A stretch of 64,000 bases of DNA from an uncultured Rhizobium sp. (GTDB taxonomy: Bacteria; Pseudomonadota; Alphaproteobacteria; Rickettsiales; UBA1997), in contig CAZOKU010000002.1 in assembly GCA_964580715.1 (NCBI GenBank), positions 531-64,530 on the forward strand. The letters are read 5' to 3'. This document shows positions 36,761 through 44,385 of this stretch, piece by piece. The notes under the pieces are model-generated. The model saw nothing but the letters and a program-made list of their open reading frames with translations. It had not been told where the DNA came from and did no database searches. Made by a program: the position numbers and the translations under genes. How positions within the stretch are numbered: position 1 is the stretch's first letter; each line of letters opens with the position of its first letter.

Positions 36761-38440
36761 ATGCCAGCAGAAATAATAAAACTAGACAATATTCCACCAA
36801 CTAGCGGTGTTTATCAATTTTTTGATGCAAAAGACCGCGTTTTATATGTTGGAAAAGCCAAAAATCTTTACAAAAGAGTTGCCAGTTACACCAAAACTGA
36901 CAAGCTTTCACAGAGAATTTCTCACATGGTTTTTTTGGCACAAAAGCTGGAAATTATTCAAACTGAAAATGAAGTTGAAGCGCTGCTTCTGGAGCACAAT
37001 TTAATCAAAAAGCTTGAGCCCCGTTATAACATCTTGCTGCGCGATGATAAAACTTTTCCTTACATTCACATTACTAAGCATAATTTTCCACAAATCACCA
37101 AATATCGCGGGCCAAAAAAAGATGACGGGTTTTATTTCGGACCATTCGCCTCAGCCCATGATGTTAATCACACCATCGATGTTTTGCGCAAAAGTTTTTT
37201 GCTTAGAAATTGCTCTGATGCTGAATTTAAATCGCGCAAAAAACCTTGTCTTGAATATCAAATTAAAAAATGCTTCGCGCCTTGTGTGAATCTGGTTTTG
37301 CAGAATGATTATGAAACTGCTGTAAAAAACGCAGTTGAATTTTTAAACGGCAAATCTGCTGAAGTGCAAAAAAATTTGCTCGCTAAAATGCAAAAATTAA
37401 GCGCAGAAGAAGAGTTTGAAAAAGCCGCAATAATTCGCGATCAAATTAAATCTTTAAACAGCATTCAAACCAAGCAAAACATTAACTTACAAGACATTAA
37501 AAATGTTGATATTATCACGCTAAAACAGCTAAACAACATGACTTGCGTTTATATTTCTTTTTATCGCAACGGGCAAAATTATGGCGCAAAACCTTATTTC
37601 TATGAAATTGATAGCACTGAAAAACAAGAAGAATTTTTATCTGATTTTTTAGGACAATTTTATTTAAACCAAATTCCTGCAAGTGAAATTTTTCTAAATC
37701 TTGAAATAGCCGAGCAATCCTTAATGGAAGAGTTTTTAAGCAAGCTGGCGGGTTGTAAAGTTATCATAAAAATTCCTAAAATTGGCAGTAAATTGGCTTT
37801 AATCAAAGATCAGGAAAAAATCGCACTGCAAAATATTGAGCAAAAAATATTACAAAATTTAAATAATCGCGAATTGCTTTTAGAGATAAAAAAAGCTTTT
37901 GATTTACCAAAAATGCCACAAAAAATTGAAGTTTATGACAACAGCCACACCAGCGGAAGTAATGCTGTAGGGGTTTTAATCACCGCCGACATCAATGGCT
38001 TTGTTAAAAGCGGCTATCGCAAATTTAACATAAAATCAGCAACACCAAATTCAGAAACCAACATTCTTTACGGCAAAGACGACACTGCCATGATGCGCGA
38101 AGTTTTATTTCGCAGATTCTCAAAATTAGACAAATCTGAATATCCTGATTTAATCATTCTTGATGGTGGAAAACCACAACTATCAGCGGCTCAAGCAATT
38201 TTTGATGAATTAAAAATCAAAATTCCTTTTATTTGCATGGCCAAAGGCGAAAACCGCAACGCTGGTGAAGAAAAATTTCATCAAACCAACAAAGAAATTG
38301 TAACTTTTCCCAAAAATCACCCCGCCCTACATTATCTGCAAAGATTACGCGACGAAGCCCACCGCTTTGCGATTATGACTCATCGCAAAAAACGTAGCAA
38401 AGAAACTTTTTTATGGGCCACTAATTCTCACGCCTCCTGA
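36761..38440 (+). CDS. uvrC: Excinuclease ABC subunit C (UvrC), apparently lacking the C-terminal (HhH)2 domain
   Basis: 559 aa. GIY-YIG (GVYQFFDAKDRVLYVGKAKNLYKRV), UVR domain (EEEFEKAAIIRDQIKSL) and the endonuclease V-like domain (IEVYDNSHTSG...RDEAHRFAI). The ORF ends about 20 aa after the EAHRF motif, inside the converging 994-aa gene. Confidence 0.85.
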   Translation: MPAEIIKLDNIPPTSGVYQFFDAKDRVLYVGKAKNLYKRVASYTKTDKLSQRISHMVFLAQKLEIIQTENEVEALLLEHNLIKKLEPRYNILLRDDKTFPYIHITKHNFPQITKYRGPKKDDGFYFGPFASAHDVNHTIDVLRKSFLLRNCSDAEFKSRKKPCLEYQIKKCFAPCVNLVLQNDYETAVKNAVEFLNGKSAEVQKNLLAKMQKLSAEEEFEKAAIIRDQIKSLNSIQTKQNINLQDIKNVDIITLKQLNNMTCVYISFYRNGQNYGAKPYFYEIDSTEKQEEFLSDFLGQFYLNQIPASEIFLNLEIAEQSLMEEFLSKLAGCKVIIKIPKIGSKLALIKDQEKIALQNIEQKILQNLNNRELLLEIKKAFDLPKMPQKIEVYDNSHTSGSNAVGVLITADINGFVKSGYRKFNIKSATPNSETNILYGKDDTAMMREVLFRRFSKLDKSEYPDLIILDGGKPQLSAAQAIFDELKIKIPFICMAKGENRNAGEEKFHQTNKEIVTFPKNHPALHYLQRLRDEAHRFAIMTHRKKRSKETFLWATNSHAS

Positions 38441-41395
38441 ACCACCTGCAGGCTCAACTATGGATCCAGAAGAAGAGCGTGAAGCTGGACCAACAACTGC
38501 TCCAGATGAAGAGTTAGAAGACCCAACAGTTGTTCCACCTTTTGAAGATGAGGCAGAACCAACCATAACTCCTTTTTTACCACCGCTAGAACCAACCACA
38601 ACTCCTGATTTTTCCCTTCCTCCAACATCAGCAACACTGGTTCCTTTATTACCATATTTCTGAACTTTTGATGAACCATATCTTCCAACCTTTTTAGCAA
38701 GTTTTTCTGTACCACGCATTGCACGTCTTTGTGCTTTCCTTAAGAAATTACCAGTGCTTGACATCATCTTAGTCATAGAAGCGGCCCAAGGAGCAGGGCC
38801 TCCAGCACCAACCAACTTCTGAGCGAATTGCGTAATCTTATCCATAAATGCCGATAAAATAAACAATATAAATGCACCCTTCAGAATTGCCATAAACTTG
38901 GTTTTATTCATCGTTACCATAAGAATAGGAATTCCAAAACCAAGACTTCTAAACACTGAAGACACTTTGTAATTTACAATATTCATTATGCAGTAAATAC
39001 TTTCATCAGCTCCTGGTGTGGTGCAATCAATGGTTTTTTCTTCCTTCACACCATCTCCACTGAATAAAACATCACCAACTACTACCTTATCAAAAACAAT
39101 AATCACAAAAGCAAGATAACAAAACAAAATCATTGGCTGCAAACAAAAGCCCAGAACCTGTCGCCACCAACCATCGAACACATTTTTAGTACGATTAAAA
39201 AGTGCCAAAGTTATAGTGACAGGAGAAACATATATCAAAATCGTAATTGCAATAATTGCCACCAACATTATATGTATTGCTCGAATCACTAAAGACAACA
39301 TGAAGAACCCTAAGATCAAACTAAACACCACGAAATAAATACCAAGTCCACCAGTAAAAAACCCAGCAACCACTAACATAATTAAATTTGGAACTGTTGC
39401 TGAAGGTCCGTAACCCATAGCACGGGCCAATTTACAATCTAGTGTATCCCAAGGTCTTAAATATTCTTTTCCAGGAGGATAGGCTCGAGTTGCTGGATTA
39501 TATCTGGTATCCTCATTTTTATCTTTATAGTTAAAGCGAGGAAATTGACAACCATCTAGCCGATTTTGATTTACACTAGGACTGCCATAGTATCCATCAT
39601 CACCTAAATTGAACACCATGTTCGCCAAATAAGAAGAAGATTTAATAACACCAGAAGCAAATTGATCTTGCCATGCAGTGCCCAGCGCAAAATAAGAAAC
39701 TAATCCAATTTTTAATATGTAGGGAAGCAACTGTTTTTTTGCAACTGGCTGAAGCCCAAGCAAAATCATTGCACCAAAAAGCATCACCGAAATCGACATC
39801 GCAACTTTAATTACGGTTCGTAATCCCGATACTATCTTAGAAAAGAAAGAAGGAGTTGTTAAAGTATCACCATTTTTATACTTAACCCCACTATGTGGAC
39901 ATGGATTTTGTGTAGTAGTAACCACAATATCTGCCGTAGCATCAAAAAGAGGAATCTCAGAAGAATCATTACATATCGTATGCCCTGCCCTGTTAAAAAA
40001 TAAATTTTCTACAGTCTCTTTAAAACATTGTATAACTGGAGCAGAAAAATGCCTGATATTACTCGTCAATATTCCTGCATTATAAGAATAAACATTCTGC
40101 GAATCCCCTTCCATATTAGCGCAAGCAGAAGAAACAAAAGCTTGTGCGAAAGCAGGCTGCTTAATGGTTGGAATAATCGGAAGTTTTATGCAATGGTTCA
40201 TATATTGACAAGAGTTTGTCATATAACCAGGATTATTTGGGTCCGGATTTTGTGTTTCTGTTCCACCGCCAAGATTATGATTAAAAGGACAAACAGAATA
40301 TGTTTTTGCACAAATATAATTTGGCACAGTTTTAGATGGAAAAATATCAAAAGTTATCGCATCGACAATACATCTGCTGCCCAATTTACAAACTTTATAG
40401 TCTTTTCCTTTATCAATACACATTGTGTTTTGACTTCTTTGAACACAACAATCATAAGCATTTTGCGCAGCAGCTCTTTCATCTTCCGTAGCAAATTTAT
40501 ATAATAAAAACCGATTGCAAGCATAAACCGGAGCATTTCCTGCGCCAGTGTAATAATATTTTTGATTATCACTGTCATATCCAAGTCTTATTAACCTTGT
40601 AGGACCATCCCACGGGTTTGTACAAGCATCATCTCCATTATCCGTATATTCCATTCCACCATAAAAATATTCACGATAAAGCTTATTTGTCATATGGCGA
40701 CTTAGGTCACTATCAGAATTTATTCCATAACTGTTACATTCTGCAGGAATGCCCCCTGGACCGAATATAGTTTCAATACATTTACGATAACCACCCTTAC
40801 CTTTCACCAAAGGACTATTAGAGCCACTGTCAGCAGCACTGCCATCAGCCTTGCTCCATCCTGACCAAGCAGCGCCACAAACCCTTGTGCTATCATAAGC
40901 AGATTTTGCTGCTGCATAAACAACCCCCATAGCAGCAATCGTAGCAGCAGTTGAAGCAACCAAAGCCCAAGCAGTAGCACAACAAAAAGGATTAGAAACA
41001 CTAGTTGCCGCACAAGTTGCATTATTTTGTGCGATCTCCATAATTTTTGTTGGGGACATTGCAACCCCAGCAGCTATTTGGCGTGCGGTTTCAGCATTAT
41101 ATATCGTATTAGCACAAGCATTATTTGCCGCATATGACGCCGCAGCACCAACCAATCCAACACCAGCAACCAAAGACGCACAAACTGGATTAGAAATTTG
41201 CCAATCTAGATCTATACCACCAAAGGGAGTAAATGAAATTTCAGCAACATCACAACGATCTTGAGTATAACTTTTAACCGTTCTTGGCCCATCATAAATC
41301 GCATAAGCATTGTTTGTTTTACAGACAGCAGAAAAAAACAACAATAAAGCTAGAGAGTAACAAAAATTTTTTTTCCAAAAATTATAAAACATCAA
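38411..41395 (-). CDS. Large Cys-rich polytopic membrane protein, tentatively TrbL/VirB6-like
   Basis: 994 aa. Signal/anchor sequence, an approximately 500-aa N-terminal region with more than 20 Cys, at least 6 TM helices (e.g. LIMLVVAGFFTGGLGIYFVVFSLILGFFMLSLVIRAIHIMLVAIIAITILIYVSP, then FDGWWRQVLGFCLQPMILFCYLAFVIIVF, reminiscent of the TrbL/VirB6 core) and a Gly/Ser-rich tail (GSSGGKKGVMVGSASSSKGGTTVGSSNSSSGAVVG). The family assignment is from pattern memory only. Confidence 0.4.
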   Translation of the reverse strand: MMFYNFWKKNFCYSLALLLFFSAVCKTNNAYAIYDGPRTVKSYTQDRCDVAEISFTPFGGIDLDWQISNPVCASLVAGVGLVGAAASYAANNACANTIYNAETARQIAAGVAMSPTKIMEIAQNNATCAATSVSNPFCCATAWALVASTAATIAAMGVVYAAAKSAYDSTRVCGAAWSGWSKADGSAADSGSNSPLVKGKGGYRKCIETIFGPGGIPAECNSYGINSDSDLSRHMTNKLYREYFYGGMEYTDNGDDACTNPWDGPTRLIRLGYDSDNQKYYYTGAGNAPVYACNRFLLYKFATEDERAAAQNAYDCCVQRSQNTMCIDKGKDYKVCKLGSRCIVDAITFDIFPSKTVPNYICAKTYSVCPFNHNLGGGTETQNPDPNNPGYMTNSCQYMNHCIKLPIIPTIKQPAFAQAFVSSACANMEGDSQNVYSYNAGILTSNIRHFSAPVIQCFKETVENLFFNRAGHTICNDSSEIPLFDATADIVVTTTQNPCPHSGVKYKNGDTLTTPSFFSKIVSGLRTVIKVAMSISVMLFGAMILLGLQPVAKKQLLPYILKIGLVSYFALGTAWQDQFASGVIKSSSYLANMVFNLGDDGYYGSPSVNQNRLDGCQFPRFNYKDKNEDTRYNPATRAYPPGKEYLRPWDTLDCKLARAMGYGPSATVPNLIMLVVAGFFTGGLGIYFVVFSLILGFFMLSLVIRAIHIMLVAIIAITILIYVSPVTITLALFNRTKNVFDGWWRQVLGFCLQPMILFCYLAFVIIVFDKVVVGDVLFSGDGVKEEKTIDCTTPGADESIYCIMNIVNYKVSSVFRSLGFGIPILMVTMNKTKFMAILKGAFILFILSAFMDKITQFAQKLVGAGGPAPWAASMTKMMSSTGNFLRKAQRRAMRGTEKLAKKVGRYGSSKVQKYGNKGTSVADVGGREKSGVVVGSSGGKKGVMVGSASSSKGGTTVGSSNSSSGAVVGPASRSSSGSIVEPAGGSGGVRISGP

Positions 41396-42017
41396 AAACT
41401 TTTACTAGCTGATTAATCTCTTGGTTTTTAACCTTAAGAGAAGTTCGGTTAACCACTAAGTGAGAGGTTACATCAATTATTTTTTTTAGTTCAAACATTT
41501 CATTTTCAATTAAAGTTTTTCCACTGCTAACTAAATCTAAAATAAAATCACACAAACCAAGCGCCGGCGCAATTTCAATTGATCCGTTAAGCTTGATTGC
41601 TTCAGTTTGAACCCCATTTGCTGAAAAATATTTTTCTGCAATGTTGGTATATTTCGTGGCAATTCTGATATGACTAATTTTATTTAAATCAAGCTCAATA
41701 TTTTTTTTTGCCGCAATTGACAAACGACATTTGCCAATTTTTAAATCAAGAACTGGAAAAATTTCTGGTGAAGAAAATTCTTCTAAAACGTCAAGCCCAC
41801 AAATTCCAAGATCCGCCGCGCCAAATTTTACAAAAGTTGCCACATCAAAACTTCTAACTTTTACAATCTCCAAATTTTCTATATTGGTTTTAAAAATTAA
41901 CTTTCTTGCCGAATCATCAAAAAAATCAGCTTCCGGAACAATTCCCGCTCTTTCAAACAAAGGATAAAGCTCAGATAAAATTCTTCCTTTTGGAACTGCA
42001 AATAAAATTTTTTTCAT
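41382..42017 (-). CDS. hisG: ATP phosphoribosyltransferase, short form (HisG)
   Basis: 211 aa. LFAVPKGRI, VRSFDVATFVKFGAADLGICGLDVL, IATKYTNIAEKYF and LVSSGKTLIENEM. No other his genes are adjacent. Its stop overlaps the start of the 994-aa gene by 14 nt. Confidence 0.85.
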   Translation of the reverse strand: MKKILFAVPKGRILSELYPLFERAGIVPEADFFDDSARKLIFKTNIENLEIVKVRSFDVATFVKFGAADLGICGLDVLEEFSSPEIFPVLDLKIGKCRLSIAAKKNIELDLNKISHIRIATKYTNIAEKYFSANGVQTEAIKLNGSIEIAPALGLCDFILDLVSSGKTLIENEMFELKKIIDVTSHLVVNRTSLKVKNQEINQLVKVFDVL

Positions 42018-42043
42018 ATTTAAAAATTCTTATAATAACCTTT

Positions 42044-42084
42044 GGTGCTAGTCGGGGTCTCCTGACCCCGACTGACTGTTCATT
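42044..42084. repeat. Family-A-like palindromic element between hisG and the OMP gene
   Basis: ggtgctagtcggggtctcctgaccccgactgactgttcatt, with core GTCGGGGTC-TCC-TGACCCCGAC. Confidence 0.8.
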
Positions 42085-42178
42085 TTCCTATCAAAAATTG
42101 GCATTTATAATAACTTAAAATAAACCTAATAACCTAGAAAAAAAGCCGCTACCGCAAAAAAAATAATTTTTTCCATGT

Positions 42179-43393
42179 TTAAAAATTCTTATAATAACGA
42201 AGCAACAGCCCCAATCCATTAACTTTATTAGAACCAGTTTTAAAGTCATTATATTGATTTTGATAACCAACTTGCACTAAAAAACGATCAAATAAAATGT
42301 TTTTATCAAATTCATAACCAACTGAAATCTCTTTCAAAGATTGATCAAATCCATATTGATATGGCTTGTTATTGTGTCGAGCACTATATCCAAGCGTCAC
42401 ATTCCAATTACGACAAAAACGATTAACCGCATTAGCAGTTAAATAGTTTTCATCATTGCCACGACGCCCCAAAACATTTTTCAGCAAAGCATATTCAACC
42501 AAAAAATCTGTATCAACTTTTTCATGAGACGCAAATTTATAATTCATTCCCGCCACAACTCCTGTTTGGTTTGACACATTGTAATCCAAACTAGCATTAG
42601 CATTAACCGCTAAATTCATATAACCAAAATGATAAGTCAATTTTTCTCTTTCACCAAAATCAAATTTAATATCAAGCCCAATAGTGTAAGATTTTAAAGA
42701 TCTCGTATCACCAGGAACAGCATCTTGCTTGCGTTCCGACTCTCTGCTTGTAATCAAAGAATTATCCAAATTTTTGCGATCATTAGTGAAGCTAGAAAAA
42801 CTAAATTCATATTCACCAGTCTTTTTTAAATTTCCTAAACGATAAACTCCACCAAAACCAAGTTTTTCAGTTTGTCGATAGTTGTTTGCAATAAGATGGT
42901 TCCAAATGCCGCGATTCCAGCGCCAAGCAGTTCCAAAATTTGGATTAAACTTTCCCGCAAGAAGTGCAAATTTTTTCCTATCATAAGAAATGTTTAATTC
43001 TCTTGCATAAATTCCTTCTGAATCAAAAGCAAAATCGCCAGCATTATGCGACACTTGAGTTATTCCATTAGTTCTTCCATCTTGGTTCACAACTTCCATA
43101 ATAAACTGGCCATTTAATGCCAAATGCTTGGTAAGGTTAAGCGACGAAAAAAGACGGCCTCTTGCAGCAATATTTCTATATTCACTAGCTTTATCAGTGG
43201 CGCGATATTGATCATTAACATTTACATCAAAAATCAATTGATTAGAAAATTTTGGAAAAAAAGCCTCACCACTTTCTGTTTCTTTATTATCCTCTTCAAG
43301 CAAATGCCTGAAAGTGTTGATCTTAACATCTTCAGCAAATAACTTGAAAGGAAAGAAAATAAAAACTAAAACTATTAAAAAATTCTTTTTCAT
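42179..43393 (-). CDS. Putative outer-membrane beta-barrel protein (porin-like)
   Basis: 404 aa. Signal peptide MKKNFLIVLVFIFFPFKLFA, alternating-hydrophobicity strands throughout and a C-terminal ...LLLRYYKNF with terminal Phe. Confidence 0.5.
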   Translation of the reverse strand: MKKNFLIVLVFIFFPFKLFAEDVKINTFRHLLEEDNKETESGEAFFPKFSNQLIFDVNVNDQYRATDKASEYRNIAARGRLFSSLNLTKHLALNGQFIMEVVNQDGRTNGITQVSHNAGDFAFDSEGIYARELNISYDRKKFALLAGKFNPNFGTAWRWNRGIWNHLIANNYRQTEKLGFGGVYRLGNLKKTGEYEFSFSSFTNDRKNLDNSLITSRESERKQDAVPGDTRSLKSYTIGLDIKFDFGEREKLTYHFGYMNLAVNANASLDYNVSNQTGVVAGMNYKFASHEKVDTDFLVEYALLKNVLGRRGNDENYLTANAVNRFCRNWNVTLGYSARHNNKPYQYGFDQSLKEISVGYEFDKNILFDRFLVQVGYQNQYNDFKTGSNKVNGLGLLLRYYKNF

Positions 43394-43420
43394 TAATCTA
43401 TGGTTAGGTAAAACAATTTT

Positions 43421-43622
43421 ATAAACGCCAATTCGGGATAAAAAAGTAATTGTTTTAAACCAAAATGTGTGAAAACCGTCGTCTTCCTTCGATCTGGCTT
43501 AGAATTTTTAATTTAAAAAACTCACTTATTTGCATAAGCTCAAGTTTTTTAAATTAAAAATTCTAAGCCAGCTCTTTGCAATACTCGGTTTTGACACATT
43601 TTTATCCCGAATTGGCGTTTAT
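43421..43622. mobile_element. Approximately 200-bp near-perfect palindrome (MITE-like, family D)
   Basis: ATAAACGCCAATTCGGGATAAAAA (43421-43444) pairs with TTTTTATCCCGAATTGGCGTTTAT (43599-43622). Inner arms also pair: caaaatgtgtgaaaaccg with cggttttgacacattttt, and ctggcttagaatttttaatttaaaaaac with gttttttaaattaaaaattctaagccag. The loop centre is cttatttgcataag. There is no coding capacity. Confidence 0.8.
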
Positions 43623-43656
43623 AAGAAATTAATCTTGATACAAAGACACAAATTTT

Positions 43657-44385
43657 ATGTCAATTCCAGTTTTAATCGCAATAAGTTTTTCTGCCGGATT
43701 TTTTATTGAAAGCATCGTTGGCTTTGGCGGTGGTTTAATTGCTTATGCGATTCTCGGCTTTTTCATGGATCTTAAAGACATGATTTTAGCTGGCTTTTAC
43801 ATCGGCACCTGCTCTAGCGCCTATATTGCCTATACCGACATAAAATCATTCAACAAACCAATTTTTAAATCAATTCTGCCAATCTCTTTAATCGGAACTA
43901 TAATCGGCGTTTTTATCTTTAGCAAATTCTCTCCAGACTCTCTTGCTCTTGCCTTCGGAATTTTGTTAATTTTTCTTGCCACCAAAATCTTATTTTTCGA
44001 TCACTATATTTTGCCAAAAATCTTTAAAAATAAATTAATTTTACTCGGCGGAATCTCTCACGGAGCCTTTGGAATAGGCGGCCCATTCTGGGTTAATGCT
44101 TTAAAAAATGACTTCCAAAACAAATCACAATTGCGCACCACAATGGCAATTATTTTTGTTGCTTTTAATTTTGTACGCTTAATTCAGCTAAGTCTGCAAG
44201 GCCAAATAAAACTACAATTTTTTCAAGAAATATGGTGGGTAATCATACCAATCTTCATAACCATAAAGCTCGGACATCATGTTCATACAAAAATTAGTGA
44301 TAATATATTCAAAAAAATGATTGCTTTAATGACATTTTTTGCTGGAATAAAGTTTATCTCTAAATTTCTAATGGCATTTTTGTAA
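43657..44385 (+). CDS. TauE/SafE-family sulfite/anion exporter
   Basis: 242 aa with about 7-8 TM segments. VGFGGGLI and GAFGIGGPFWV glycine motifs in the two halves. Confidence 0.65.
   Translation: MSIPVLIAISFSAGFFIESIVGFGGGLIAYAILGFFMDLKDMILAGFYIGTCSSAYIAYTDIKSFNKPIFKSILPISLIGTIIGVFIFSKFSPDSLALAFGILLIFLATKILFFDHYILPKIFKNKLILLGGISHGAFGIGGPFWVNALKNDFQNKSQLRTTMAIIFVAFNFVRLIQLSLQGQIKLQFFQEIWWVIIPIFITIKLGHHVHTKISDNIFKKMIALMTFFAGIKFISKFLMAFL

Follow-up and report, generated by a model that had tools for sequence, protein, structure and literature searches.

A large cysteine-rich VirB6-like protein encoded behind hisG, a probable RvhB6-type subunit of a dispersed type IV secretion system in freshwater Rickettsiales

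We analyzed a 64,000-nucleotide (nt) stretch of contig CAZOKU010000002.1 (hereafter the window), where a gene lying between hisG and uvrC encodes a cysteine-rich membrane protein of 994 amino acids (aa). The protein belongs to the VirB6/TrbL family by sequence, profile and fold, and there is a high likelihood that the gene encodes an RvhB6-type VirB6 paralog of a scattered Rickettsiales vir homolog (rvh) machine in a metagenome-assembled genome (MAG) of freshwater Rickettsiales, probably from the GTDB family UBA1997. In a P-type type IV secretion system (T4SS), the base of the stalk is formed by VirB6, a polytopic inner-membrane protein.

Assignment to the VirB6/TrbL family

The first-pass annotation of the window had described the protein as an orphan, possibly a VirB6/TrbL relative of the large type known from Rickettsiales. 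The suggested relationship is borne out at several levels. Residues 684-772 match Pfam PF04610 with 35.3 bits, above the cut-off of 25.9, and a search of NCBIfam with the same protein gave no match. A family profile built from 27 full-length homologs has a sole match in the PDB, TrwI/VirB6 of plasmid R388 (E = 8.9e-4), with the 'FDgW' motif of the family aligned on the 'FDQW' of TrwI. The tryptophan of the latter motif pairs with W743, which is invariant in the 27 sequences; the invariant Trp, in the loop that follows the central transmembrane helices, is an essential residue of VirB6 (PMC2653234). An AlphaFold2 model based on the homolog alignment (mean predicted local distance difference test score, pLDDT, 68; predicted TM-score, pTM, 0.48) was compared with the PDB by Foldseek, and each of the best 8 matches is a TrwI/VirB6 chain from the R388 stalk (probability 1.00; target TM-scores 0.57-0.64). 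Finally, a word-indexed search produced 43 homologs, which cover 71-99% of the query (mostly >85%) at 31-46% identity; each contains PF04610, and some are annotated as 'type IV secretion system protein [Rickettsiales bacterium]' or 'VirB6-like'. Both the Pfam search and the remote-homology search thus favor the family call, and a T4SS is also present in the genome, as described below. The label "orphan", on the other hand, does not hold, given the 43 full-length homologs, 171 clusters of proteins sharing the N-terminal domain, and a full-length paralog in the same genome; it fits only in the sense that the gene lacks vir neighbors.

The earlier description of a three-part protein proved accurate, as the signal sequence, the Cys-rich region, and the transmembrane block followed by a tail are all present (Table 1). 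Residues are numbered here from the TTG at 41395, the first codon of the longest open reading frame (ORF; 38411-41395, reverse strand; 994 aa). However, the ATG at 41392, situated within '...TTT GAT Gnn' of hisG, is kept in 7 of the 7 related loci compared (in L007, as '...TTT AAT G'). Since this start is conserved, the protein has 993 aa and its gene overlaps hisG by 11 nt, the 14-nt overlap proposed initially being true only from the TTG.

Table 1. Coordinates of the virB6-like gene, its parts and its neighbors in the window.
Feature	Coordinates	Strand	Remarks
Coding sequence of the VirB6-like (probably RvhB6-type) protein	38411..41392	-	conserved ATG start at 41392; longest ORF starts with TTG at 41395
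Signal peptide (predicted), residues 1-32	41300..41395	-	sequence and family motif YA/xYxGVR (slash, cleavage)
Cys-rich N-domain, residues 33-524, presumably periplasmic	39824..41299	-	24 Cys, 18 invariant
Polytopic VirB6 core, residues 525-855, about 7 transmembrane helices	38831..39823	-	hydrophobic block, PF04610, profile and model
Best PF04610 (TrbL/VirB6) stretch, residues 684-772	39080..39346	-	Pfam; same stretch recovered in the genome search
C-terminal tail, residues 856-994, basic, then disordered and Gly/Ser/Val-rich	38414..38830	-	11-12-residue periodicity; pLDDT <50
hisG, short-form ATP phosphoribosyltransferase	41382..42017	-	upstream gene of the operon
Overlap of the hisG stop and the virB6-like ATG, 11 nt	41382..41392	-	conserved in relatives
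Gene of a 404-aa secreted protein of no known family, putative outer-membrane beta-barrel	42179..43393	-	protein ends with ...YYKNF; first gene of the cluster
uvrC, 559 aa, convergent	36761..38440	+	last ~10 codons overlap the virB6-like tail (38411-38440)

Residues 1-32 probably form a Sec-type signal peptide with predicted cleavage after AYA, and the motif around the cleavage site is conserved among the family members. The protein has 32 Cys, of which 24 are in residues 33-524, in agreement with the initial count of more than 20 in an extracytoplasmic region; the following block, for which at least six transmembrane helices had been proposed, fits about seven. In the alignment, 22 Cys are invariant: 18 in the N-domain and two pairs, C616/C654 and C791/C802, in predicted periplasmic loops, so that none is found inside the predicted cytoplasmic segments (22 of 22 outside). 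The predicted cytoplasmic loops and the tail are enriched in Lys and Arg, and W743 sits in a predicted cytoplasmic loop of the core. This predicted layout would agree with the topology of VirB6, in which the N-terminus and a large loop are periplasmic and the C-terminus is cytoplasmic.

This pattern of conservation bears on the very improbable explanation that we are dealing with a redundant, decaying paralog without its own function. The identity to orthologs, low compared with the neighboring genes, and a tail varying in length and composition between genomes would agree with decay. Against it, every genome examined, from at least six genera, retains an unbroken frame of about 1000 codons, 22 Cys and many motifs are invariant, and the start codon embedded in hisG is conserved; decay is thus largely refuted by conservation.

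Type IV secretion genes in the same genome

Searching the rest of the assembly (1.43 Mb in 74 contigs, 85% complete) for virB genes and for paralogs, we observed an rvh-type T4SS and two more VirB6 proteins, the profile search giving three copies including the window protein. The paralog on contig C41 (1050 aa, 32 Cys) is 32% identical to the window protein over 1034 columns, has a similar Gly/Ser/Val tail, and is encoded directly downstream of a VirB4 gene (virB4a). The third VirB6-like protein (1296 aa; G000:C49:6463-10353, reverse strand) is differently built. It has a different Cys-containing N-terminal region and a charged, coiled-coil-like C-terminal extension of ~650 residues, and its gene has no other vir genes around it and precedes a gene of aconitase size.

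Other components include two VirB4 (C41 and C48), two VirB8 and two VirB9, encoded as adjacent pairs (C34 and C59), VirB10 (G000:C18:18769-20103), VirD4 on C17, and four PF00437 ATPases as candidates for VirB11, of which the one on C8 looks PilT-like. No VirB5 was found above the threshold in this 85%-complete genome, the lone match being sub-threshold and containing stop codons. Hence, the genome displays the hallmarks of rvh systems, namely duplicated RvhB4, RvhB8 and RvhB9, multicopy RvhB6 and no VirB5 (PMC11077975), the last of these with respect to the search threshold.

The rvh genes are unusually dispersed, as singletons or pairs, and VirB10 and VirB4b each lie on their own among housekeeping genes. 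VirB10 stands alone beside genes for a sigma-54-type response regulator and a PpsR-like protein, VirB4b (G000:C48:698-3154) stands alone between gatB-like and citrate synthase genes, and there is no virB8-9-10-11-D4 cluster, unlike in Rickettsia. Thus, a lone VirB6 gene is in character for this genome. It had been noted initially that the window contains no virB genes, and indeed within these 64 kb there is no other vir gene, all other T4SS matches being on other contigs.

Just downstream of virD4 (G000:C17:22668-24449, reverse strand) there is an ORF with a masked run and an Ala/Arg/Pro-rich sequence that looks GC-rich, compared to 35% GC in the genome. It may be a chimeric contig end or contamination.

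A conserved locus and the history of the paralogs

The linkage to hisG had been considered an odd genomic context. Comparison with eight related MAG loci and the genomes G098, G280, G116, G159 and G294 of the same family demonstrates instead a family-wide conserved arrangement. Wherever the flanks extend, genes for a SulP-carbonic anhydrase and TauE on one strand are followed by the gene of the 404-aa protein, hisG and the virB6-like gene, and then by convergent uvrC, thyX and exoD. The 404-aa protein, which has no match in Pfam, NCBIfam or the PDB, probably represents an undescribed family of outer-membrane beta-barrels (below, the OMP). At least six genera of a single family, probably GTDB UBA1997, share the gene order from the OMP gene to thyX, and the position behind hisG is an old, conserved arrangement in this freshwater Rickettsiales family. 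The overlap of the hisG stop with the virB6 start recurs in the compared loci and, at 11 nt with the ATG lying within the final codons of hisG, suggests translational coupling.

The same synteny argues against the extremely improbable origin of the gene as the TrbL/VirB6 component of an integrated conjugative element or a plasmid remnant. PF04610 is mostly populated by conjugation proteins, which would favor such an origin, but there are no tra or trb genes, integrase or relaxase nearby, the flanks consist of housekeeping genes in a conserved order, the GC content is native (GC content and skews of the gene are the same as those of the flanks), and the N-domain is vertically distributed within one family. 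We reject both the conjugative element and a pseudogene on the grounds of synteny and conservation.

In nearly every genome of the family there are two Cys-rich VirB6 paralogs, one located after virB4a and the other after hisG; the former directly follows virB4a in 7 of the 7 genomes checked. As a tree with distant outgroups was distorted by long branches, the trees were rebuilt without them, and the hisG-linked and the virB4-linked copies each formed a clade with support of 92-99 in the Shimodaira-Hasegawa-like approximate likelihood ratio test (SH-aLRT). Since the hisG-linked copies form one clade, the linkage arose once; from the two supported clades it follows that both the duplication and this linkage are older than the split of the sampled genera, G223 (g5) excepted. 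The G223 genome, the smallest one, lacks hisG; behind its virB4a there are two tandem genes for Cys-rich VirB6 proteins, the second of which was not placed by the trees.

In another explanation, the window protein would be a VirB6-derived envelope protein uncoupled from secretion and forming, together with the putatively co-transcribed OMP, a trans-envelope device of its own, used for example in transport or in attaching to the algal host, with the T4SS served by the virB4-linked paralog. In favor of such a device, which we regard as decidedly unlikely, the separation of the gene from all vir genes predates the split of most genera in the family, and its linkage is to a gene for a secreted OMP-like protein of no known family; in G241, hisG is gone from the locus, and the OMP and virB6 genes are still adjacent; both proteins evolve fast; and the N-domain has no known fold. 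However, the separation means little in a genome where every rvh gene is found singly or in a pair. Moreover, G159 retains hisG-virB6 without a detectable OMP gene upstream, the tandem copies of G223 follow virB4a in a genome without hisG, the core retains the signature Trp and the fold of VirB6, and rvh systems as a rule have several divergent copies of VirB6 (PMC2653234, PMC11077975). Elsewhere in the G241 genome, a distant hisG-like match (32% identity) is located in an open frame of 286 residues (G241:C12:17949-18422).

The Cys-rich N-domain

The Cys-rich N-terminal part of ~400 residues, confined to one family, is the only unexplained part of the protein. The family-specific segment comprises about residues 33-437, and canonical RvhB6 proteins can still be aligned to residues ~438-524 of the N-domain. 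When residues 33-520 were searched by a full HMMER pass against 1.84 billion representatives, 171 clusters emerged; nearly all are proteins of 950-1800 aa that carry the domain close to their N-terminus. The order was sampled with 301 genomes representing 160 genera. Here, the domain profile matched 24 genomes from 7 genera of the family to which the window belongs, mostly with two copies each; outside it, the profile reached one other family, weakly and only in part, and gave no match in a genome that has the five RvhB6 genes in their canonical array.

The structure of the domain, whose prediction had been proposed by the first-pass annotation, was modeled separately (pTM 0.61, core pLDDT 72-94). 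Foldseek found no PDB fold match to the model, the best hit (E = 0.43) being an unrelated protein; the domain profile had no match among PDB sequences at E<=10, and the domain had none in Pfam. A pilus-tip adhesin similar to VirB5/TraC/TrwJ was also considered for the domain and gains no support from these sequence, Pfam and fold searches.

It is conceivable, though unlikely, that the N-domain is a built-in substitute of VirB5 fused to VirB6, which would form a periplasmic stalk or even reach the cell surface and mediate the contact of epibiotic freshwater Rickettsiales with their cryptophyte hosts. If so, the two paralogs would give alternative or mixed stalks.

Comparison with known systems

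The closest parallel is provided by RvhB6a-e of Rickettsia, five arrayed extended VirB6 paralogs of the rvh T4SS (PMC2653234). As in these proteins, of 670-1150 aa, a PF04610 core with an invariant Trp is placed between large, divergent N- and C-terminal extensions, and as in the Rickettsia rvh system, there are several very divergent VirB6 copies per genome, duplicated VirB4, VirB8 and VirB9, and no VirB5. The canonical array used for comparison consists of ORFs of 1039, 675, 957, 887 and 1161 aa following a VirB4 of 805 aa, sizes that match those of R. typhi in PMC2653234. In BLASTP, the window protein matches all five members with E from 1.8e-20 to 9e-9, over the core only (residues ~438-783). 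The best matches are to the 675-aa copy (E = 1.8e-20) and the 1039-aa copy (E = 2e-19), whose sizes and positions correspond to RvhB6b and RvhB6a.

Unlike RvhB6a-e, the window gene is located behind hisG, outside the virB3-virB4a-virB6 array, and the genome has three copies only. The array position is, however, typical rather than defining for RvhB6, as there is a non-arrayed virB6e in Orientia (PMC2653234). For residues ~33-437 of the N-domain, no counterpart is detectable in the canonical array, and the window protein is richer in Cys (3.2% versus 0.8-2.7%).

VirB6-1 to VirB6-4 of Anaplasma and Ehrlichia are likewise extended paralogs, with hydrophilic, repeat-rich, strain-variable C-terminal tails (PMC7648143), and the variable repeat-like tail of the window protein parallels the repeat extensions of Anaplasma VirB6-3 and VirB6-4 (PMC7648143). 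The putative co-transcription with hisG also has a parallel in Anaplasma, where vir genes are co-transcribed with a housekeeping gene in the sodB-virB operon (PMC7648143). In contrast to Anaplasma VirB6-4, the tail has ~120 residues rather than thousands, and the N-terminal domain is different. Surface exposure and cleavage belong to the Anaplasma/Ehrlichia side of the comparison.

TrwI of R388 and VirB6 of A. tumefaciens represent the minimal form of ~300-340 aa (PDB 7O3V, 8RT9, 8RTD). The window protein shares with TrwI the membrane-core fold (Foldseek probability 1.00, target TM-score ~0.6) and the 'FDxW' loop. At the same time, it is three times larger, with a predicted cleavable signal peptide and the Cys-rich, presumably periplasmic domain of ~490 residues before the core and a disordered tail behind it; also, unlike in the TrwI/VirB6 systems, no VirB5 partner was detected in its genome.

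Proposed role

In the RvhB6-type reading, the virB6-like gene would be transcribed from the OMP-hisG promoter and its translation coupled to that of hisG via the conserved ATG-in-stop overlap. The protein would be exported by means of the cleaved signal peptide, leaving the disulfide-rich N-domain of ~490 residues and the two Cys-paired loops in the periplasm, and the 'NRTKNVFDGWWRQ' loop (the W743 loop) and the basic, disordered Gly/Ser tail in the cytoplasm. The core would then assemble, alone or mixed with the paralogs, into the VirB6 platform on which the T4SS stalk is based, in the manner of TrwI in R388, and the large periplasmic domains of the two Cys-rich paralogs would supply the stalk or periplasm-spanning mass in a system without VirB5.

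Several observations weigh against this reading. The Pfam match spans only ~90 residues of the core, and the confidence of the full-length model is middling. The topology rests on the signal peptide, the distribution of Cys and the positive-inside rule, and two Ala/Gly-rich hydrophobic helices of the N-domain (residues 67-94 and 136-169) could form an extra membrane hairpin. The gene adjoins no vir gene, and at 85% completeness of the genome the absence of VirB5 is provisional. Finally, the protein evolves much faster than its neighbors (35-46% identity versus 55-77% for HisG and 63-66% for UvrC). Across the compared loci, identity is 27-46% for the VirB6-like protein, 31-50% for the OMP and 80-85% for ThyX. 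Such a rate fits an envelope or host-facing role, and also relaxed constraint.

Neither the N-domain nor the hisG coupling changes the identity of the protein, which is an ordinary member of the oversized VirB6 family of Rickettsia-like bacteria. An apparent orphan is thereby settled, with the likelihood given above, as an RvhB6-type T4SS subunit, and an uncultured freshwater family of Rickettsiales is seen to have the full set of rvh hallmarks, with the genes more dispersed than in Rickettsia. Members of the GTDB family UBA1997 have been reported to live in fresh water as epibionts of cryptophyte algae and to be amino-acid prototrophs (bioRxiv 10.1101/2023.01.31.526412), which fits a genome with hisG. 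The large, disulfide-rich, presumably periplasmic domain of no recognized fold, preceding the VirB6 core in one family only, bears on how the rvh stalk may be built without VirB5. A secretion-system gene putatively coupled in translation to hisG across at least six genera should also be of interest to T4SS specialists.

Other features of the locus

Scans of positions 38000-43700 were uninformative both for promoters, as promoter-like sites were fewer than in shuffled sequences, and for terminators, none of which was convincing between hisG and the virB6-like gene. A 40-nt direct duplication (42000-42039 and 42159-42198; 90% identity, 159 nt apart) spans the junction between the OMP stop and the hisG start and brackets an inserted GC-rich hairpin element. 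The distance between the OMP gene and hisG is 1-4 nt in most relatives, and in L011 the spacer is 139 nt. In the window, insertion of the hairpin element split a formerly tight OMP-hisG-virB6 operon.

The convergent uvrC overlaps the virB6-like gene by 30 nt (38411-38440), as noted initially. It had also been called truncated, and the comparison with relatives shows that the virB6-like gene is not the cause. The 559-aa UvrC contains the GIY-YIG and UVR domains and both RNase H-like domains, lacks (HhH)2, and covers positions 4-538 of the 574-position TIGR00194 model. For UvrC of the relatives, the alignment stops at residues ~547-551 and the called length is 546 aa, these proteins being equally short (~546-550 aa). 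One relative locus has the same short UvrC with a gap of 44 nt and no uvrC/virB6 overlap. UvrC without (HhH)2 was observed in every family member examined (the window, L005, L006, L012 and L019). Since the short form is family-wide, including loci without the overlap, the virB6-like gene did not truncate uvrC. The short UvrC is a family trait; what is local to the window is the extension of uvrC by its last ~10 codons into the tail of the neighbor.

The low-complexity Gly/Ser tail with a loose periodicity, as proposed by the first-pass annotation, is also recovered. Residues 871-994 contain 20% Ser, 20% Gly and 11% Val, and the self-identity of the tail peaks at lags 12 (40%) and 11 (29%). Tandem Repeats Finder reported no repeat in the tail DNA, and the periodicity is real at the protein level only. 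The tails of the two Cys-rich paralogs (38414-38620 in the window and G000:C41:272-450) share a G-x-V-x-G/S-S-rich style with a period of ~12 residues, and orthologous tails in other genomes carry quite different repeats, for example 'TEDKA' and 'GDRSAKSD'. The shared style within one genome hints at co-evolution of the paralog tails.

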